Source of the DNA: Lachnospiraceae bacterium
Lineage (GTDB): Bacteria; Bacillota; Clostridia; Lachnospirales; Lachnospiraceae
Direction of reading: 5' to 3'
Length of the DNA: 46,709 nt
NCBI GenBank assembly: GCA_900770325.1
Contig: CAAGKE010000112.1
Coordinates: 1-46,709 of the forward strand
Shown piece by piece: positions 1,302 to 15,950 of this stretch. How positions within the stretch are numbered: the stretch's first letter is position 1; each line of letters begins with the position of its first letter. The notes under the pieces were generated by a model. That model did no database searches. It saw only the letters and a program-made list of their open reading frames with translations, and was not told where the DNA came from. The position numbers and the translations under genes were made by a program.

Positions 1302-4300
1302 ATGGATTATTTAGATTTTTTGAAAACCAAAATAGAAATCGCGGTAGACAGCGGTTTTGTTGTAGATCAGGAAGAAATTAATCCAGCACTTAAACCACAC
1401 CAGAAAGATGCAGTAATTTGGGCGTTAAAGGGCGGACGCAGGGCCTTATTTGAAAACTTTGGAATGGGAAAAACCATACAGGAAATCGAATTTTGCTATC
1501 AGGCAGTGCGCCGGTTTAGTGGTAAAGCACTGATCGTATGCCCGTTAGGAGTTAAGCAGGAGTTCCAGAGGGATGCTGTGAAGCTTCTGGGATATAAAGA
1601 ACCGGTATATGTTCGGAATATGGATGAGGTCATGGAAGCGGAAGGAGATATCCTGATTACGAATTATGAGCGTGTCAGGGATGGAGATATCCAGCCGGAT
1701 TATTTTACTGCAACAAGTCTGGATGAAGCTTCCGTCTTACGGAGTTTTGGCAGCAAGACCTATCAGACGTTCCTGGATAAATTCAAGAGTGTGCCTTACA
1801 AACTGGTAGCCACGGCAACGCCATCTCCGAACAAATACAAGGAGCTGATCCATTATGCCGGATACCTGGAAATAATGGATACAGGACAGGCGTTGACACG
1901 GTTTTTTCAAAGGGATTCCACGAAAGCGAATAACCTGACGCTGTATCCAAATCAGGAGGACGAGTTTTGGCTGTGGGTAAGTAGCTGGGCGCTGTTTATC
2001 ACAAAACCTTCAGATGTCAATCCGAAGTATTCTGATGATGGGTATGTTCTTCCGCCACTGGATGTCAGATGGCATGAACTCCCTGTACATTATGGGGACG
2101 CAACAGATCGGGATGGGCAGTTTGAATTATTCAAAGAAGCTGCAGCAGGATTAAAAGAAGCAGCACAGGTGAAACGGGAGAGCATTGATTCCAGAGTGCA
2201 GAAGATGAAAGAGATTGTGGATTCTGATCCGGATGCACATTTTATCCTCTGGCATGATCTGGAAGATGAAAGAAAAGCCATTAAGGCTGCGATACCTGAA
2301 ACGGTGGATATTTACGGGTCTCAGGATTATGAAATCCGAGAAAAGCGAGTGATTGATTTCTCAGAAGGAAAAACGAGGCTGTTTGCTACCAAGAAGGAGC
2401 TTTCCGGATCCGGGTGCAACTTCCAGAGATGCTGCCACAGAGAAATTTTCCTTGGAATTGATTATGAGTTTAATGACTTCATCCAGGCAATTCACCGGTG
2501 CTATAGATTCCTCCAGACCGAACCTGTAATTATTGACATTATCTATATGGAAAATGAGCGGCAGATTAAAGATGCATTACTGGAAAAGTGGAAAAATCAC
2601 GATCATATGGTACAGAAGATGGTCGAGATTGTTAAGAAGTACGGCCTTTCAGGAGTCGGGAAAGAAAAACGCCTGGAGCGGAAGATGGGAGTTGAAACAG
2701 TGCGAGTAAAGGGAAAGAAATACACGGCCGTACATGATGACTGTGTGGAAGAAACCAAAAGAATGGAGACTGACAGTGTTGATCTGATTCATACGTCAAT
2801 CCCGTTTGGAAACCATTATGAGTACAGCGCAAATTACAATGATTTTGGACACAACCAGAATACAGAGAGATTCTTTGAACAGATGGATTTTCTTACACCA
2901 GAACTCCTGCGCGTGCTTAAGCCAGGCAGAGTAGCAGCCATACATGTGAAGGACAGAGTGCTTTTTGGGAATACAACGGGAACTGGAATGCCAACAATAG
3001 AACCGTTCCATGCGTTATGCATTGAGCATTATATGAAACATGGTTTTCAGTATTTTGGCATGATAACGGTTGTGACAGACGTTGTGAGGGAGAACAACCA
3101 GACATACCGGCTGGGATGGACAGAACAGTGCAAGGACGGCTCAAAGATGGGTGTTGGGTGTCCGGAATACATACTTCTGTTTCGAAAATTGCCGACAGAC
3201 CGGTCAACGGCTTATGCGGATGATCCGGTGAAAAAGAGCAAGGATGAATATACCCGCGCTCAGTGGCAGATTGATGCTCATGCATATTGGCGCAGCTCAG
3301 GAGATCGGCTTGTGAGGAAAGAAGAACTTGAACAATGCTCAGTTGATAATTTACAAGCGGTTTACCGTGCATACAGCAAGGATCATGTGTACAGCTATGA
3401 AGATCATGTATCTTTGGCAAAGCATCTGGATAAAAACGGAAAGCTCCCGGCCACGTTTATGGTGGTAGCACCCGGAAGCTGGACTTGGGAAGTGTGGGAC
3501 GATATAAACCGAATGAAAACGCTCAATACAACCCAGAGCAGAAGGAGGGCGCAGCTCCATGTATGCCTTGCAGAAGGAACGTTGGTCCTGACAAAGGAAG
3601 GTTATAAACCAATCGAAAAAGTACAGGTAGGAGATTTGGTTCTGACCCATAAAGGAAACTGGAAGCCGGTTATAGCAAAGTCATGCACCGGGACAAAGGA
3701 AACTATACAGACAAAAGCGCAGGGAGTGGCAAGGCTTATAACTACACCAGAACATAAATTATGGGCAAAGAAGACGGATTACGCCAGACCAAAATATGGG
3801 CTAAATAAAGCAACCGCAGAATGGGTTGAAGCTAAAAATCTCCCTGGAGGATACTGCAACCTTAAACTTCCGAATGTGGAAGAGAGCCTACTTAATGAGC
3901 AAGAATGGTGGATTATAGGGAGATATCTTGCAGATGGTCATAAGGGAACGCGAGGAGACTTCTTTATCAGCGTCGGAAAGAGTAAAGTAGCAGAATTTGA
4001 GCAAAAGGCTGCTGGAAAATATGGTGCATGCGGGGAACGTGACGCGCTCCAGTACAGGCTAATTAACCTTAGTGAACCGCTTAAAAATATGCTTCGAAAA
4101 TGCGGACGCGGAGCGGAAAACAAACAGGTTCCTGTTGAAGGATTATGTCTTAACCGGGAATTGTCAGAAGCGTTATTAAGTGGATATTTATCAGGTGACG
4201 GAAACATAACCGGTAATTGCACATCGGCCACATCTGTATCGAGGGCTTTACTTTTGGGAATGGCAATGGTGGCTCAAAGGGCAAAAAATGTTATAGCATC

Positions 4301-4784
4301 TGTATATGCTGGAAGAGAAGAACGGGACAGCGAAATTCTTGGAAGGAAGGTGCATTGCCAGCAGGAGTGGGTAATGTCATGGAGAGATTCAGTACATCAC
4401 CACGAGGGTGAAATTATGGAAGATGGCGCATGGAAAAAAGTTAAGCAGTATGAAAAAATGGGCGTTCGCGAAGTGTGGAGCATACAAGTAGCGGATGATG
4501 CCAGCTATACCGCGGAGGGATGTATTGTAAAGAATTGTCCTCTTCAGCTAGATATCGTACAGAGAATTATCAACAGATACAGCAACGGAGGAGATCTTGT
4601 CTATGATCCGTTTGGAGGTCTTATGACGGTGCCTTACATGGCTGTAAAGATGGGGCGCAGGGGGTATGGATGTGAACTAAACCCGGATTATTTCCGGGAT
4701 GGCGTGGGGTATCTGCAGGCGGCAGAAGATGAGATTGAAGCGCCTACATTATTCGATTACATGCCGGATGTGATTGGATTATAA
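1302..4784 (+). CDS. SNF2-family helicase fused to a beta-class N6-adenine/N4-cytosine DNA methyltransferase, interrupted by an intein
   Basis: Helicase motifs are GMGKT (I), LDEAS (II), ATATPSPN (III), SGSGCNFQ (V) and QAIHRCYRFLQ (VI). Methyltransferase motif IV is DLIHTSIPFG, followed later by motif I, VYDPFGGLMT. The extein junction AQLHV/CPLQLDIVQRII restores an HxxxxP..L..R.I methylase block. Confidence 0.9.
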   Translation: MDYLDFLKTKIEIAVDSGFVVDQEEINPALKPHQKDAVIWALKGGRRALFENFGMGKTIQEIEFCYQAVRRFSGKALIVCPLGVKQEFQRDAVKLLGYKEPVYVRNMDEVMEAEGDILITNYERVRDGDIQPDYFTATSLDEASVLRSFGSKTYQTFLDKFKSVPYKLVATATPSPNKYKELIHYAGYLEIMDTGQALTRFFQRDSTKANNLTLYPNQEDEFWLWVSSWALFITKPSDVNPKYSDDGYVLPPLDVRWHELPVHYGDATDRDGQFELFKEAAAGLKEAAQVKRESIDSRVQKMKEIVDSDPDAHFILWHDLEDERKAIKAAIPETVDIYGSQDYEIREKRVIDFSEGKTRLFATKKELSGSGCNFQRCCHREIFLGIDYEFNDFIQAIHRCYRFLQTEPVIIDIIYMENERQIKDALLEKWKNHDHMVQKMVEIVKKYGLSGVGKEKRLERKMGVETVRVKGKKYTAVHDDCVEETKRMETDSVDLIHTSIPFGNHYEYSANYNDFGHNQNTERFFEQMDFLTPELLRVLKPGRVAAIHVKDRVLFGNTTGTGMPTIEPFHALCIEHYMKHGFQYFGMITVVTDVVRENNQTYRLGWTEQCKDGSKMGVGCPEYILLFRKLPTDRSTAYADDPVKKSKDEYTRAQWQIDAHAYWRSSGDRLVRKEELEQCSVDNLQAVYRAYSKDHVYSYEDHVSLAKHLDKNGKLPATFMVVAPGSWTWEVWDDINRMKTLNTTQSRRRAQLHVCLAEGTLVLTKEGYKPIEKVQVGDLVLTHKGNWKPVIAKSCTGTKETIQTKAQGVARLITTPEHKLWAKKTDYARPKYGLNKATAEWVEAKNLPGGYCNLKLPNVEESLLNEQEWWIIGRYLADGHKGTRGDFFISVGKSKVAEFEQKAAGKYGACGERDALQYRLINLSEPLKNMLRKCGRGAENKQVPVEGLCLNRELSEALLSGYLSGDGNITGNCTSATSVSRALLLGMAMVAQRAKNVIASVYAGREERDSEILGRKVHCQQEWVMSWRDSVHHHEGEIMEDGAWKKVKQYEKMGVREVWSIQVADDASYTAEGCIVKNCPLQLDIVQRIINRYSNGGDLVYDPFGGLMTVPYMAVKMGRRGYGCELNPDYFRDGVGYLQAAEDEIEAPTLFDYMPDVIGL
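3564..4535 (+). mobile_element. Intein (324 aa) with LAGLIDADG homing-endonuclease domain, in-frame inside the methyltransferase domain
   Basis: The N-terminal splice block is CLAEGTLVLTKEGYKPIEKVQVGDLVL and block B is TTPEH. The two LAGLIDADG motifs are WWIIGRYLADGH and LLSGYLSGDGNI. Block F is VWSIQVADDASYTAEG and the C-terminus is CIVKN followed by the +1 Cys (TGT at 4536). Confidence 0.85.
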
Positions 4785-4863: not shown

Positions 4864-6033
4864 ATGGAACAATTGAGTTTTATCGATGCCGAGGAGATGG
4901 AAGTATCGGAAATCACGGAACGGACAGAAGCGGAACAGAAAGAATTTGAGGAGTGGAGGCAGAAAAAGAAGGAAGCAAAAGCGAGATTTACAGCAATGCA
5001 GAATCTACCTTATGAGGTCAAAGTAAAACGAGCAGAACTCAGAGCGATTGAGTTTGTGGAGCAGATGGACGCACGGGGATGCAATGCTCATGTGAGCGTT
5101 GGAGGATTGGATAGCATTACACTGCTTTTCTTCCTACGGCATATTGGGATTGACGTACCTGCAATATCGGTATCCGGAGTAGAGGATAAGAGCATTCAGC
5201 GTATTCATAAATTAATTGGCGTTGAGACTTTGAAATCCTACAAAACCAAAGTGGAAGTGCTGAATGAGGTAGGATTCCCAGTGATCAGCAAGAAGATTGC
5301 AGGGCGGATTGACCTATTGCAACATCCGACTCCGGATAATCAGACTGTTAGGCATGCGATTATCACAGGAGAATGCGGAGCGCAGGGACACTTCGCGAAG
5401 AACAGCCGTATGCAACTTCCGAAACGGTGGCTGGAGCTGTTTGGTGGTCCAGAAAATGAAAATGAAGGCGTGAACTATCAGACGGCACCTTTTCTGGTAT
5501 CAAATAAGTGCTGCTATTACCTGAAGGAGAAACCGTGTGATGACTGGGCAAAGGAGCATAACAGCTGGCCGTTTCTCGGAATGATGGCATCGGAAGGCGG
5601 ACAGCGGGAAGAAGCGCTGGTAGACCATGGATGCAATTATTACGGAAAGACAGTTATGAGATCAGCGCCGTTTGCTCCGTTTCTCAGACAGGATATTTTG
5701 CAGTTGGCCCTTGATCTGGATGTTCCGGTTCCGGAAATATACGGAGAAATCAGGAGAAAGCCGGATGGAACACTGTATACAACAAAGGCTCAGCGAACCG
5801 GATGCAGCATGTGCGGATTTGGGATACATATGGAACCGCGGCCACATCGGTTTGATCGGTTGCGGGAAATGAACCCTAAAGAATGGGAATTTTGGATGTA
5901 CCGTTGTTGCACAGACAAGGCAACGGGTGAGAAGTTTGGATGGGGCCGTGTGTTGGATTATATCGGAGTAGCATGGGAGGATTATCCGGTAACACAAATG
6001 AGCCTGTTTGATCTGATGGAGGCGAAGCCATGA
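4864..6033 (+). CDS. PAPS-reductase-like (adenine-nucleotide alpha-hydrolase superfamily) protein with Cys-rich C-terminal half
   Basis: The PP-loop-like motif HVSVGGLDS is followed by Cys clusters CCYYLKEKPC and GCSMCGFG. The ORF is open from a TTG at 4774, but I chose the first ATG, so the start is uncertain. Confidence 0.75.
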   Translation: MEQLSFIDAEEMEVSEITERTEAEQKEFEEWRQKKKEAKARFTAMQNLPYEVKVKRAELRAIEFVEQMDARGCNAHVSVGGLDSITLLFFLRHIGIDVPAISVSGVEDKSIQRIHKLIGVETLKSYKTKVEVLNEVGFPVISKKIAGRIDLLQHPTPDNQTVRHAIITGECGAQGHFAKNSRMQLPKRWLELFGGPENENEGVNYQTAPFLVSNKCCYYLKEKPCDDWAKEHNSWPFLGMMASEGGQREEALVDHGCNYYGKTVMRSAPFAPFLRQDILQLALDLDVPVPEIYGEIRRKPDGTLYTTKAQRTGCSMCGFGIHMEPRPHRFDRLREMNPKEWEFWMYRCCTDKATGEKFGWGRVLDYIGVAWEDYPVTQMSLFDLMEAKP

Positions 6034-7529
6034 TTAACGGAGAACTGATAGTTGATAACTTTGCCGGTGGCGGGGGAGCAAGCACCGGTATAGAGATTGC
6101 CACAGGTAAGAGCGTGGATATCGCCATAAATCATGATCCCATGGCGATTGCCCAGCACAAGGCCAATCACCCAAGCACCAAGCATTACTGCGAGTCTGTG
6201 TGGGATGTAAAACCAAAAGAGGTGTGCAAAGGTCATCCGGTGGCGCTGGCGTGGTTCTCGCCGGACTGCAAGCATTTTTCTAAGGCTAAGGGAGGAAAAC
6301 CTAAGGACAAGAATATTCGCGGCCTCGCGTGGGTAGCGCTCCGCTGGGCGGCGATTGTCCGACCGAGGGTGATTATGCTGGAGAATGTAGAGGAATTCAA
6401 GGACTGGGGGCCGCTAAACCGCGGGCACCGTCCGATTAAGGCAAAGAAAGGTGTGACATTCCGGAAGTTTGTCAGTCAACTGGAAGATCTGGGATATGTT
6501 GTGGAGCACAGGGAACTGGTTGCAGCTGATTACGGAGCGCCAACTACCAGAAAGCGGTTCTTCCTGATTGCCAGATGCGACGGCAAGCCGATTGTCTGGC
6601 CAGAGCCGACACATGGCCCGCGTGAATCGGATAAGGTCAAATCAGGTATCCTGAAACCTTATGTCGGAGCATATACGCAGATTGATTTCAGCCTTCCGTG
6701 TCCCAGCATTTTTGACAGCAAAGAGGAGATCAAGCAGAAGTACGGAATTAAGGCACAGAGACCTCTTGCAGAAAAAACCATGCAGAGGATTGCCAGAGGG
6801 CTAAAAAAGTTCGTGATGTATAATCCGGAGCCGTTTATTGTGACAGTAAATCACGGAGGAGAGCGAGCACCAAGAGACGTCAAAGATCCGATGCCGACTA
6901 TCACTGGAAAGCATGGCTTTGGAATAATTGTTCCCACACTGATACAGTACCATTCAGAGACTGTTAGCGGTGAAGTTCGTGGGCAGAAACTGGACGAGCC
7001 TATAATGACGGTGGACGGAAGCAACCGATATGGACTAACAATCGCATATCTGGTGCAATTTAATAATCATTGTGACGGTCGTGATATGAGGGACCCCATA
7101 CCGACAATAACCGCAGGAGATGGGCATTTTGGAGAGGTCAGGGCTTTTTGTGTTAAATATTACGGACAGGGCACCGGGCAGGATATTAAAGACCCTCTGG
7201 ACACGATCACAGCCAATGACCGGTTCGGGCTTGTGACGGTTAATAGCATTGATTACGCCATCGTAGATATCGGTCTGCGGATGTTGGAGCCGAAAGAGTT
7301 GTATGGTTGTCAGGGATTCCCTGAAGATTACATAATTGACCGGGACTACACCGGGAAGCCTTATCCGAGGTCAGAGCAGGTGAAGCGCTGCGGTAATGCT
7401 GTCTGCCCACCGATACCGGCGGCACTGGTAAAAGCAAATCTACCAGAGATCTGTAAAGCTCACAGAATGCCCATATGCAGACCGGACAGAGTGATGCAAG
7501 AGGATTCTGGGCAAATAAGGTTTGCATAG
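6030..7529 (+). CDS. DNA (cytosine-5)-methyltransferase
   Basis: Motif I DNFAGGGGAS, motif IV FSPDCKHFS, motif VI IMLENV, LEPKELYGCQGFPEDY, motif X GNAVCPP. The ATGA start overlaps the upstream stop. Confidence 0.9.
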   Translation: MINGELIVDNFAGGGGASTGIEIATGKSVDIAINHDPMAIAQHKANHPSTKHYCESVWDVKPKEVCKGHPVALAWFSPDCKHFSKAKGGKPKDKNIRGLAWVALRWAAIVRPRVIMLENVEEFKDWGPLNRGHRPIKAKKGVTFRKFVSQLEDLGYVVEHRELVAADYGAPTTRKRFFLIARCDGKPIVWPEPTHGPRESDKVKSGILKPYVGAYTQIDFSLPCPSIFDSKEEIKQKYGIKAQRPLAEKTMQRIARGLKKFVMYNPEPFIVTVNHGGERAPRDVKDPMPTITGKHGFGIIVPTLIQYHSETVSGEVRGQKLDEPIMTVDGSNRYGLTIAYLVQFNNHCDGRDMRDPIPTITAGDGHFGEVRAFCVKYYGQGTGQDIKDPLDTITANDRFGLVTVNSIDYAIVDIGLRMLEPKELYGCQGFPEDYIIDRDYTGKPYPRSEQVKRCGNAVCPPIPAALVKANLPEICKAHRMPICRPDRVMQEDSGQIRFA

Positions 7530-14007: not shown

Positions 14008-14304
14008 TTATTGCCAGAAGTCAGGGATGTATACTTTGACTGACTCTGATCCCGATACGCTTTTTACAATACCTTCGTATACTTCGATGTTTTCCACTTC
14101 TGGGTCAACGCCTTCGGCTCCGCCATCAATAATCGCATCGTATACATGTTCTGCCTCGTCCTTGATGTCTCTGAGGCTCTGCATACCCATGTAGTGCAAA
14201 TCATAACTATCAAGATCACGGGTCGCATCAATTACGGTGGTGCCGTAATCGGCACCCACAACAACATACTCTCTATCGGTTAATTCTGATAACAACTTAA
14301 ACAT
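14008..14304 (-). CDS. small strongly acidic hypothetical protein (98 aa)
   Basis: Strong RBS (AAAGGAGAAAATATG on the minus strand). About 22 Asp/Glu versus about 7 Lys/Arg by my count. Confidence 0.75.
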   Translation of the reverse strand: MFKLLSELTDREYVVVGADYGTTVIDATRDLDSYDLHYMGMQSLRDIKDEAEHVYDAIIDGGAEGVDPEVENIEVYEGIVKSVSGSESVKVYIPDFWQ

Positions 14305-14376
14305 ATTTTCTCCTTTCTCTGGCGATAAGATTGCGATCTAACACTGGCTAAACAGATCGCCAAGTTATTTGCGAAT

Positions 14377-14405
14377 ATTATACTATTTATCCCGGAAAAC
14401 AACAA
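14377..14405 (-). promoter_or_regulatory. sigma-70-like promoter for 14008..14304
   Basis: On the minus strand, TTGTTG (14405-14400), a 17-nt spacer, then TATAAT (14382-14377). Confidence 0.45.
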
Positions 14406-14976
14406 GACATTTTCCGGAGGCCCGCGTGTGTGTTGCCTCATGGGGCCTTACCTCCTCTATACATGATTTTTTGCATAACACAAGCCGCCACCCGTCTGCG
14501 CCCCGTCTCGCAGCTTATAGGACAGTGCTTGTATTATGCAGGATGCTATCGCGCAACCATTAAGCGCCGGATCACGTCACCGGGGCGGGGATGGGTTAAT
14601 GAGTTGCCGGCTTGCATTGGGGCGTAGACGGGTACAGATACCCTTTGCAAGTGCTTTGTTTTGCCGTTTTAACCGGTTGGCTTCCGGTGCACTGTCATTG
14701 TTTTGTGTCCGCGCTTGACACGATGCTAGGACGGTTTTATACGCCGCTTTCCTGGTCTCGTGCGGCTGTCTGGATGGTTACAGCACCAGATTAGCCTGGG
14801 AATCTATAGCCGGCTTCCCGGCGTCCTTTCCCTCACCGCGATTATTTACCGCGTGCGGCGCTCGGAGCGTCGATAATGACGCTTGACTAGCTCATATCAT
14901 CCCTGTAAGACAGGGGAATTCCGCTTTGCCTTCTGACGGTCGCCGGACTGGATACCGGAAAGCGGTATTTTGTTTT
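14391..14976 (+). ncRNA. Candidate large structured ncRNA (about 0.58 kb, class unknown; size and context recall ROOL/GOLLD-type phage RNAs)
   Basis: ORF-free, GC-rich block. A 14-bp long-range helix pairs 14491-14504 with 14619-14632. At least 11 more local helices are listed in the finding. G-U wobbles and a terminal hairpin plus U-tract (14921-14976) favour the + sense. Boundaries are good to about +/-30 nt. Confidence 0.5.
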
Positions 14977-15021
14977 AATATTCGAAAAAAAGCTGCTCTT
15001 TTACTGTTTATTTCTGTTTTT

Positions 15022-15051
15022 AATAAAAGCAATCCGGGGAAATGCGCCCGG
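15022..15051 (-). terminator. possible terminator after 15071..15661
   Basis: On the minus strand, CCGGGcgcatttcCCCGG followed by ATTGCTTTTATT. Confidence 0.4.
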
Positions 15052-15070
15052 TTCGTTCCATACCAAATAT

Positions 15071-15661
15071 TTAGTAGTACCAACTTTCGTACAATGTTTC
15101 ACCGCCGTACTTGTAAGCGTTGCAAAAACTAGATACCTCAAATTGTGGGTTGTTCCTGCTATCTTGGTGATAGCTCTTTAACCGCTTTAAGTCTCCGTTT
15201 TCTTGGTCTTTAATAAAAACAGAATATTCTTTTGACGGTAGTATTTCATTTGATAATTTATAGGTTCTATCTGCCGACATTCCGCAAGTCGCATCTTCAT
15301 TTATTATTTGGGGGTAAACTTCGCGGACTCTTACGGATTTTTTGCCAACCAAGGCAATAACCTGGAAAAATGTTGTATTTGTCTGCTCGTATCCCCATGA
15401 AGAACAAAACAGATCTCCAACTTTTACATTAAAATCAAATTCCTGTGCTTTCTTGGGCTTTGATTTCGGTTCTGCCATTTCTCCATTCAATGCCTTTTCG
15501 ATTTCCTCACGTTCTGCGAACCCGTACCAAACAGATTTTTTAGGGTTCCATCTGAACTTGAAACCTTTCAAAATATTTCTAATTTCTTCACTTGGTTTGT
15601 CTGTGAAACTGATTTCTAACGAGTTGAATCTCTCATTGATTGTGATTAGATAACCACCCAT
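15071..15661 (-). CDS. hypothetical protein
   Basis: I chose the ATG at MGGYLITINERF..., and the ORF is open to a TTG at 15769. The N-terminal ISFTDKPSEEIRNILKGFKFRWNPKKSVWYG resembles a small domain seen on mobile-element proteins, but I cannot name the family. Confidence 0.7.
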   Translation of the reverse strand: MGGYLITINERFNSLEISFTDKPSEEIRNILKGFKFRWNPKKSVWYGFAEREEIEKALNGEMAEPKSKPKKAQEFDFNVKVGDLFCSSWGYEQTNTTFFQVIALVGKKSVRVREVYPQIINEDATCGMSADRTYKLSNEILPSKEYSVFIKDQENGDLKRLKSYHQDSRNNPQFEVSSFCNAYKYGGETLYESWYY

Positions 15662-15752: not shown

Positions 15753-15950
15753 TTAAAACTCAATTCCAAACTCTTCTTTTAACAGGACCTCAAAATCCGG
15801 GGCCAGTTCGGAGTATCTTCTGAGGAACTCCTCGTTTGTGCAAGGAGCCAGCTCCATGTGAACCTGTTCTCTGACCTCATCATCCATGCAACATACGATT
15901 GCATCCATTAAATTGTTACTAATTGCTGTTCCTTCTCCAAATCTCGTCAT
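15753..15950 (-). CDS. small hypothetical protein (65 aa)
   Basis: Strong RBS (AAAAGGAGGAAAACACAATG on the minus strand). Confidence 0.7.
   Translation of the reverse strand: MTRFGEGTAISNNLMDAIVCCMDDEVREQVHMELAPCTNEEFLRRYSELAPDFEVLLKEEFGIEF

Follow-up and report, generated by a model that had tools for sequence, protein, structure and literature searches.

A conserved structured motif next to a minus-strand mini-ORF in an accessory operon of Lachnospiraceae phages

The window analysed here, positions 1 to 46,709 (in nucleotides, nt) of contig CAAGKE010000112.1 of a Lachnospiraceae bacterium, is phage DNA that encodes an SPP1-type portal, a capsid protein, a small terminase and a DUF4417 nuclease. 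Its short minus-strand accessory operon, whose first gene encodes an AcrIC5-like (anti-CRISPR) protein, holds a gap (14305-15070) flanked by two minus-strand genes for proteins of 98 and 196 amino acids (aa). A first-pass annotation, made from the letters alone, had described most of this gap (14391-14976) as a candidate for one large structured non-coding RNA. Comparison with related phages supports a conserved structured non-coding element at this place, possibly of a new class, as had been suggested. The finding is real, its anatomy is substantially revised and the first interpretation is partly supported. The central segment, named D1, is, as judged by alignment and covariation, one copy of a conserved ~190-nt structured motif that lies outside every catalogued RNA family.

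Composition of the GC-rich block

Only overlapping open reading frames (ORFs) of 53-68 aa were found in the gap, in agreement with the earlier view that it holds no credible ORF. Windows of 586 nt across the genome have a mean GC content of 0.447 (standard deviation 0.044). For 14391-14976 the figure is 0.543, a value that only 1 of 158 such windows reaches, which confirms the contrast with the surroundings that had been noted by eye. The dense base pairing also withstood a shuffled-sequence control. The minimum free energy (MFE) of the plus strand was -228 kcal/mol (z = -3.6 against dinucleotide shuffles), and the minus strand gave z = -2.6; when the genome's own regression of MFE on GC was used, the z values were -2.7 and -1.7, respectively. 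This indicates that the region is unusual, although by energy alone not dramatically so.

The contigs that encode an identical 98-aa protein sort into three gap types. The first is identical or 99.5% identical to the window across the gap. The second (L006) is 92% identical, with the differences and a 30-nt deletion clustered in 14589-14741. In the third (L004, L007 and L010) only 14376-14636 is retained, at 90-95% identity, the right-hand 340 nt are replaced by other genes and an extra 62-aa gene is inserted at 14368/14369. The label D1 was first given to 14376-14656, of which 14466-14656 is the conserved core, and the label D2 to 14652-14976. On the evidence of these comparisons the block is a mosaic of three modules (a mini-ORF, D1 and D2), each with its own phylogenetic distribution, and not the single RNA of ~0.58 kb proposed at first.

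A blastn search with the gap returned no match among GenBank phages or PLSDB plasmids. The 98-aa neighbour had one homologue only, and the element is absent from the context of that homologue; both D1 and D2 are also missing from L001, an IMG/VR contig with a 44%-identical relative of the 196-aa gene. The entire GC-rich block is flanked by a 16-nt inverted repeat (14365-14380 TTATTTGCGAATATTA and 14976-14991 TAATATTCGAAAAAAA, 88% complementary), which may be due to chance in AT-rich DNA or may mark a recombination or insertion boundary. A related motif, ATTCGCAAAT, occurs upstream of D1 in L046-type loci.

Distribution, fold and classification of D1 and D2

One 46-nt stretch of D1 is almost unchanged in L025, a contig whose DUF4417 protein is only 67% identical to that of the window. 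A degenerate 22-mer from this stretch (TCGCNCAACCNTTAAGCGCCGG) was used as search pattern and retrieved 2 IMG/VR contigs, 5 GTDB genome contigs and 26 metagenome contigs, and 31 loci were obtained with it; when a D1 22-mer was required to match exactly, IMG/VR returned nothing. The GTDB carriers are Bariatricus, two strains of Faecalicatena contorta, 2789STDY5834876 and JCM 6483, with the loci L034 and L036, Ca. Mediterraneibacter and a metagenome-assembled genome of Eubacteriales. Among 48 loci 29 distinct D1 variants were counted, and the L066/67 and L068/69 lineages were added by profile search. The family thus comprises at least 30 sequence variants, on phage or prophage contigs of Lachnospiraceae. 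An nhmmer profile built from 25 relatives matches the window at 14468-14656 with E = 1.7e-52.

The helices of D1 (Table 1) were derived from a 25-sequence alignment (A2) with RNAalifold and by inspection. Over the 57 pairs, 88.5% of the alignment cells are standard-paired, compared with 32-46% when the 3' partners are slid by 1-3 columns, and 29 pairs are altered on both sides. The covariation score is 0.268 versus 0.138 for shuffled alignments, and none of 500 shuffles reached the observed value. Pair counts and RNAalifold therefore gave strong support to the structure of D1 when the homologous regions were checked for covariation. P1 is wholly rewritten among lineages and keeps its complementarity (TGCATAACACAAGC/GCTTGTATTATGCA, GCGCGTGGGGAATC/GATCTCCCCATATGC and GCAGGAAATAC/GTATAACCTGT), and the P3 pair at alignment columns 227/234 occurs in three forms, C-G (20 sequences), U-A (4) and G-C (1).

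The loops of P2 and of hairpin P5c are complementary, and this CCCGUC/GACGGG loop-loop pairing is found in 94% of the cells. In L052 the partners are CCUGCC and GGCAGG, with two positions changed on both sides, and L031 is intermediate. Pairing of the CCCGTC at 14502-07 had been offered only as an alternative; it is the covarying partner of GACGGG. The 14-bp helix that had been preferred to it (14491-504/14619-32) was not retained, its 3' half GACGGG being a conserved hairpin loop that covaries with this second CCCGTC. The helix 14536-42/14611-17 is likewise displaced by P1, in which 14527-39 pairs with 14473-85 with compensatory changes.

The centre of D1, GGAUGCUAUCGCGCAACCGUUAAGCGCCGGAUNACGUCACCGGGGCG, is nearly invariant, and no conserved pairing could be assigned to the variable region between P4 and P5 (14589-14610). 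P4 or its surroundings carry a 1-nt deletion in L004, L010 and L033 and a 13-nt deletion in L046, and a further 1-nt indel lies downstream. Coding is ruled out for D1 because of these 1-nt and 13-nt indels. A plus-strand peptide across D1 (MQDAIAQPLSAGSRHRG...), which showed two synonymous-looking changes, was rejected on the same grounds and for want of a ribosome-binding site.

Natural deletion variants exist in two lineages. The whole P4 hairpin (13 nt) is gone in L046, and L006 lacks 30 nt at the D1/D2 junction (window-equivalent 14678-14707), including one arm of the hairpin 14705-09/14717-21; both are usable as natural mutants in tests of which parts are dispensable. In L045, L062 and L063 a twister-P5-like type of sequence has taken the place of the 3' half of D1 (P5 and what follows it), and these copies are therefore recombinants without the GACGGG loop. 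At most other D1 loci a shorter 3' domain, made of a closing helix and one or two hairpins, stands in place of D2.

D2 alone also folds (MFE z = -4.6 for the plus and -2.9 for the minus strand). Its homologues were found only in L006 and L009 (92-99% identical) and, as diverged copies, in L066/67 and L068/69, where the copy of the 196-aa gene is 75-76% identical and D1 and D2 stand in the same order. The part shared with these diverged lineages includes the hairpin 14705-09/14717-21 and the 10-bp helix Pa. Several of the local hairpins listed at first (14705-09/14717-21, 14809-13/14818-22, 14866-71/14878-83 and 14901-05/14911-15) are present in the sequence, and comparison can check only some of the hairpins of D2. 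A long helix of the MFE fold, 14681-97/14934-50, was not borne out by relatives, one of its sides being deleted in L006. D2 is, as far as these homologues indicate, an accessory structured extension confined to three phage lineages. It ends in the hairpin that had already been described, followed by the U-tract UAUUUUGUUUU (14921-76), and this end looks like a plus-strand intrinsic terminator, by terminator scan and by its sequence.

None of the 4227 models of Rfam 15 fits the block, including ROOL (RF03087), GOLLD (RF01998), OLE, raiA, group I/II introns and HEARO. When 14250-15120 was searched with cmscan on both strands at E <= 10, only noise was obtained (snR39, preQ1-II and CRISPR-DR54, all with E > 2), and D1 and D2 gave no match in six relatives at E <= 0.5, nor to the models of hammerhead, twister, twister-sister, pistol, hatchet and HDV-like ribozymes. 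Since Rfam 15 gave no match, ROOL, GOLLD, OLE, raiA, the introns and the ribozyme families are taken as not represented here. A recurring motif, ACCGCCGCCGG...GCGGCGG, had been considered twister-like and was dropped, Rfam failing to recognise it at E <= 0.5. The preQ1-II match (E = 3.5) is at chance level and falls in the 5' untranslated region of the 98-aa gene (14302-14387, minus strand), where a 15-nt inverted repeat (14325-39/14354-68) probably forms a mere leader hairpin.

At Rfam gathering thresholds the sole match in the whole window is a tRNA-like sequence at 21662-21729 (plus strand; 51.4 bits, gathering score 29), but ARAGORN predicted none over its full length; the sequence may be a phage tRNA of atypical or degenerate form. 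The size of the block, the Firmicutes phage setting and the GC-rich gap recall ROOL and GOLLD, a resemblance already pointed out at first, and the tRNA-like sequence, 6.7 kb from the block, can be added to these points. It is, however, very improbable that the block is an intron or a divergent member of a known large RNA class (ROOL, GOLLD, OLE or raiA), or that it is no more than a pseudogene or GC-rich remnant whose helices arose by chance. The Rfam searches were negative on both strands and in relatives, the covariation and conservation of D1 across phages whose flanking proteins are 40-67% identical exclude chance or a remnant, and indels exclude coding. The whole block does resemble ROOL and GOLLD in its length (~0.5-0.6 kb), its phage or prophage setting in Firmicutes, its GC-richness, its lack of ORFs and its high degree of structure. 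It differs from them in that no covariance model matches, D1 alone measures ~190 nt, tRNA genes do not adjoin it as they often do ROOL, and the block is modular, most relatives having D1 but no D2.

As an orphan structured RNA, D1 is a new motif, but its general kind is known: it belongs with the phage or RAGATH-type orphan RNAs, which are structured RNAs near twister- or hammerhead-associated genes (e.g. RAGATH-6, RF02686, and RAGATH-18, RF03064). Like these, it is a conserved, covarying multi-helix motif found by sequence comparison, and it lies in accessory operons of gut-Clostridia phages, with type II hammerheads at eight loci and one sub-threshold twister-P5-like site. In contrast, it fits no catalogued RAGATH, hatchet, pistol or twister-sister model, the operon of the window is devoid of hammerheads, and D1 combines a compensated loop-loop pairing with an adjoining RGPP mini-ORF.

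Table 1. Features of the block, its neighbours and its relatives. Positions are those of the window except for the hammerheads, which are given for each related locus, lie between operon genes and scored 45-52 bits (gathering score 37).
Feature	Position	Strand	Remarks
D1 core	14466-14656		nhmmer profile, alignment A2, RNAalifold, pair counts
P1	14473-85/14527-39		D1; compensatory changes
P1b	14486-93/14520-27		D1; weak in this phage, strong in others
P2	14496-500/14509-13		D1; loop CCCCGUCU
CCCGTC, P2 loop	14502-14507		5' partner of 6-bp loop-loop (kissing or pseudoknot) pairing
Near-invariant centre (P3, GUUAA, P4)	14541-14588		GGATGCTATCGCGCAACCATTAAGCGCCGGATCACGTCACCGGGGCG
P3	14541-46/14553-58		D1; alignment A2
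P4	14564-70/14580-86		D1; alignment A2
P5	14611-26/14633-51		D1; loop GACGGG
GACGGG, loop of hairpin P5c	14627-14632		3' partner of loop-loop pairing
D2, lineage-restricted structured extension	14652-14976	+	Fold z, homologues, helix Pa
Helix Pa	14721-31/14750-60		D2; two double compensations, G.U pair kept in all 4 lineages
Terminal hairpin	14921-14976 (14921-27/14959-65; inner stem 14950-70)	+	Followed by TATTTTGTTTT; terminator scan and sequence
Promoter-like site TTGCCT-19 nt-TATACA	14433-14463	+	Would start RNA near 14470; unflagged by scan tool
Mini-ORF (upstream ORF, uORF), start MRQHTRGPPE	14280-14441	-	Conserved codons 1-9 (14441-14415)
Shine-Dalgarno GAGGAGG of mini-ORF	14451-14457	-	Sequence
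Promoter-like site TTGTTG-17 nt-TATAAT	14377-14405	-	Upstream of 98-aa gene; -35 weak; unflagged by scan tool
98-aa gene	14008-14304	-	Downstream of mini-ORF
196-aa gene (230 aa by gene callers)	15071-15661	-	Terminator 15051-15034 (-)
AcrIC5-like (anti-CRISPR) 65-aa gene	15753-15950	-	Pfam PF22147, E = 2.3e-9, 37.7 bits, cut-off 27
Hammerhead, L031	6994-7062	operon
Hammerhead, L035	4622-4690	operon
Hammerhead, L037	3437-3505	operon
Hammerhead, L038	4650-4719	operon
Hammerhead, L039	9205-9274	operon
Hammerhead, L050	8846-8915	operon
Hammerhead, L066	2903-2968	operon
Hammerhead, L068	1729-1796	operon

The minus-strand mini-ORF and the accessory operon

The RNA had been thought to begin at 14391. 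Its left end up to 14470 is not a conserved structure and is best explained, from its pattern of substitutions, as a minus-strand mini-ORF with 3-periodic conservation. The hairpins 14392-99/14410-17 and 14418-23/14443-48, which had been read there, lie inside this mini-ORF and are broken in the close relatives L033 and L010. Codon-like conservation, named at first as a sign that would speak against structure, was found in these left 80 nt. Past P1 on the minus strand, every lineage that keeps the segment shows a tract rich in A and a Shine-Dalgarno of GGAGG type, then an ATG, and after four codons that vary comes Arg-(Gly/Ser)-Pro-Pro. The spacing between D1 and the motif M-X4-R-[G/S]-P-P is constant across 5 lineages, with 11 variants of the peptide, and the nucleotide variation falls at third codon positions. 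The total length of the mini-ORF is 10-51 aa, its end lying 1-42 codons past the motif, and in 5 variants the stop comes one codon after PP.

What follows the mini-ORF depends on the type of phage. In window-type phages it ends 16-25 nt before, or overlaps, the start of one of three different genes (98, 62 or 86 aa), and in integrase-type phages nothing is encoded downstream of it. In L034, L035, L040 and L061 a 282-aa serine recombinase starts at its position instead, and in L037 and L066 no leader ORF accompanies D1.

Of the RAPP-like cores for translation arrest, RGPP ranks as the strongest, and RSPP is partly permissive (PMC12992588). RxPP is strongly avoided in Bacillota proteomes, and RAPP-like uORFs are reported to be absent from many Gram-positive groups, Bacillota included (PMC12992588). 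The mini-ORF resembles the RAPP-like arrest peptides (ApdA, ApdP and ApcA, and the Streptomyces RGPP uORFs) in its small size, its R-[G/S]-P-P core, its own ribosome-binding site and, in window-type phages, the co-oriented gene directly behind it; in integrase-type phages the absence of such a gene is a difference. It also differs in being phage-borne in Bacillota and in standing beside a large structured RNA. The arrest core is insufficient alone, and published peptides need the adjacent N-terminal region (PMC12992588), whereas only 5 residues precede the motif here; ribosome arrest by the RGPP/RSPP mini-ORF is therefore put forward as a hypothesis only.

At all loci D1, in the orientation of the window, converges on recurring accessory genes and lies at the far end of their operon. 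Among the products of these genes are an LPD29/J-domain-like protein (336-354 aa) and small proteins (81-125 aa). Type II hammerheads at or above the gathering score were detected 0.27-2.4 kb from D1 at eight loci (Table 1), always on the operon strand; the Rfam scan found none in the operon of the window. A sub-threshold twister-P5-like site is present in L025 (3326-3370, minus strand; 30.6 bits, gathering score 37.6), with similar sequence in L050, L045 and L063. A tmRNA-like match in L025 proved to be a T-arm-like terminator hairpin and not a tRNA-type attachment site. The 196-aa protein has 708 homologues at E <= 1e-5, and its family recurs in hammerhead-bearing phage accessory operons; over its first ~55 residues it is similar to the C-terminus of primase-type PHROG families of phages. 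The homology of the L004-type gap to the window has its left edge just past the -10 element of the promoter-like site upstream of the 98-aa gene (14377-14405). Elsewhere in the window, a 1160-aa ORF (1302-4784, plus strand) combines SNF2-type helicase, Hint (intein-like) and N6/N4 DNA methylase domains and is followed by a C-5 cytosine methylase at 6030-7529.

On its other side, D1 usually has a tyrosine integrase, encoded on the same strand 450-580 nt away, and this arrangement raises the question of whether the element acts as DNA, either as a site where the integrase or serine recombinase next to it would attach or recombine the DNA, or as an origin or packaging signal that folds as single-stranded DNA (ssDNA). 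Most relatives have that integrase upstream of D1, four have the serine recombinase directly downstream, G.U and A.C pairs are near parity in D1, tandem 9-nt repeats lie near it in some loci, and covariation cannot tell RNA from ssDNA motifs (PMC5737381). Nevertheless, a DNA-level element appears quite improbable. The window phage, the L004-type phages, L066 and L068 have D1 without an adjacent recombinase. In ~190-kb contigs D1 is intact beside the integrase, and hence not split as a prophage attP would be, though the contig ends lie nearby. Moreover, the compensated loop-loop pairing and the multi-helix covariation are untypical of recombinase binding sites. The repeats (GGAAGCCCT, 6-9 copies) were seen in L038, L039 and L050, where they lie in the AT-rich spacer that separates the integrase gene from D1, ~350-440 nt upstream of the core, and could be iteron-like or arm-type binding sites.

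Strand and possible role of the element

The first-pass annotation had assigned the RNA to the plus strand, convergent with the flanking genes. The wobble statistics, the terminator-like hairpin and a promoter-like site still favour that call, which is nevertheless not secure. Across D2 the ratio of G.U to A.C pairs is 13:2, and in D1 it is 91:69 by cell and 24:19 by lineage, with G.U in excess in every count. The plus-strand MFE was the lower one in 21 of 25 D1 members, and D2, too, has the better z value on this strand. The plus-strand promoter-like site (Table 1) has an 18-nt spacer and a perfect TATAAT in L010. At the other end, the putative plus-strand terminator (14921-76) faces the minus-strand terminator of the 196-aa gene (15051-15034), and the two would insulate D2 and D1 from operon read-through.

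Several observations weigh against the plus strand. The ratio of G.U to A.C in D1 is only ~57:43, and an RNA that works on one strand would be expected to show a far stronger G.U skew. At the loop-loop position 185/312 the C.A of two lineages corresponds to G.U on the minus strand. The MFE advantage of the plus strand is mostly a matter of base composition, the shuffle z-scores being alike for both strands, and the promoter-like site is weak and conserved only within the window-type lineage. In integrase-type relatives the 3' domain of D1 ends 8 nt from the stop codon of the converging gene, with no plus-strand terminator, and in L037 a 15-bp minus-sense terminator comes directly after D1. Furthermore, the orientation of D1 relative to the operon is constant, minus being the operon strand in every relative and the hammerhead-bearing strand in eight, and the mini-ORF or the serine recombinase starts 25-30 nt past P1 on the minus strand. 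Because of these starts directly after D1, a minus-sense RNA must span at least part of D1. In the relatives, no consistent strand signal emerged from scans for sigma-70 promoters and terminators.

These points are accommodated by a minus-strand, operon-sense element, a reading that we regard as possible though somewhat doubtful. D2 and D1 would then be transcribed with, or just after, the accessory operon, and in relatives the RNA would be released or trimmed by the upstream hammerheads. It could act in cis, as a structured 5' leader that regulates the mini-ORF, the recombinase or the cargo gene and that perhaps senses a ligand or factor or cleaves itself, or it could be a stable 3'-terminal RNA of the operon, and the RGPP mini-ORF would stall ribosomes and set the expression of the next gene. 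Such an element would be consistent with D1 being co-oriented with, and downstream of, the accessory genes in all lineages examined (>30 variants), with the strong terminator after D1 in L037 and with the fixed distance at which the A-rich tract, the Shine-Dalgarno and the ATG of the mini-ORF or recombinase (the latter in L034, L035, L040 and L061) follow D1. It would also fit the close spacing between the end of the mini-ORF and three different gene starts in window-type phages, the lack of a terminator between the last operon gene and D1 in integrase-type phages, and the same-strand hammerheads upstream at eight loci, which are only 0.27-0.4 kb away in L037 and L035. On the other side, the wobble statistics lean towards plus, clearly so in D2, and helix Pa would hold conserved A.C mismatches in all four lineages if read on the minus strand. 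A terminator stands between the last gene of the operon and D2/D1 in the window and in L066, no minus-strand promoter is evident in 14977-15033, and nothing is encoded past the mini-ORF in integrase-type phages.

The near parity of G.U and A.C in D1 is also the outcome expected from selection for folding on both strands. In the IncFII, IncB and IncI plasmids the control regions (CopA/CopT-tap; Inc RNA-repY) combine an antisense RNA, a leader peptide and a pseudoknot. By analogy with the copy control of R1 (CopA/CopT-tap) and of IncB/IncI (Inc RNA, repY, pseudoknot), D1 might be a sense/antisense pair in which complementary folded RNAs meet by loop-loop contacts and control translation of a leader peptide and of the gene behind it. 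The locus shares with these plasmid systems a structured leader, a short leader ORF with its own Shine-Dalgarno, complementarity between a hairpin loop and 6 nt far away from it and, given that each strand has plausible transcription signals, possibly two-strand transcription. We consider it unlikely that both strands matter in this way. The proposal is an analogy to plasmid systems, D1 by far exceeds the known antisense control RNAs in size and in sequence conservation, with a near-invariant centre, and some members of the family (L037 and L066) have no leader ORF.

When the strand of D1 is weighted on all this evidence, the plus strand comes first, the minus strand second, function on both strands a good way down and a DNA-level element last. 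Our working model, which is held tentatively and short of being established as the probable one, is that of a composite RNA locus, placed last in an accessory operon of anti-defence type, with a plus-strand RNA. In this model D1 and D2 would be made together as a self-contained ~0.5-kb plus-strand transcript that starts near 14470, ends at the terminator at 14921-76 and is convergent with, and antisense to, the accessory operon. The RNA would fold into a compact body, locked or stabilised by the loop-loop pairing, and would act as a stable non-coding RNA through the invariant P3-P4 centre, which would present a surface for binding or catalysis to a conserved partner from the host or the phage. 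On the minus strand, the RGPP mini-ORF would separately gate the variable cargo gene behind it, whose product has 98 aa in this phage and 62 or 86 aa in its sisters. Candidate roles for the D1/D2 RNA, as far as sequence alone can suggest them, are those of an operon regulator or antisense RNA, a decoy, a ribozyme or a scaffold.

A bolder and rather unlikely proposal is that D1 represents a new class of functional RNA, which would either cleave itself as a ribozyme or sense a ligand or factor. Physically coupled to an RGPP arrest mini-ORF of no more than 9 codons, it would form a phage sensor that switches on variable anti-defence cargo genes or a recombinase. Alternatively, within the same proposal, its complementary loops would multimerise the RNA into an assembly made of RNA only, as in ROOL and GOLLD. 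ROOL and GOLLD multimerise by means of inter-molecular kissing loops, and this is one possible role for the complementary loops of D1.

The accessory operons of gut Lachnospiraceae phages, represented here by the AcrIC5-like gene, the LPD29/J-domain proteins and the hammerheads, are where counter-defence functions concentrate. The locus also carries a lesson, namely that a striking GC-rich "one big RNA" can prove to be a recombination mosaic of separate modules. If the arrest hypothesis is true, the RGPP/RSPP mini-ORF would be the shortest RAPP-like arrest peptide and the first in Bacillota phages. Its conservation over 190 nt, the near-invariant centre of 46 nt and the tertiary contact with compensatory changes make D1 itself a concrete new functional-RNA candidate, be it a ribozyme, a sensor, a decoy or a scaffold, and since two cultured strains of Faecalicatena contorta carry the element, direct testing is possible.

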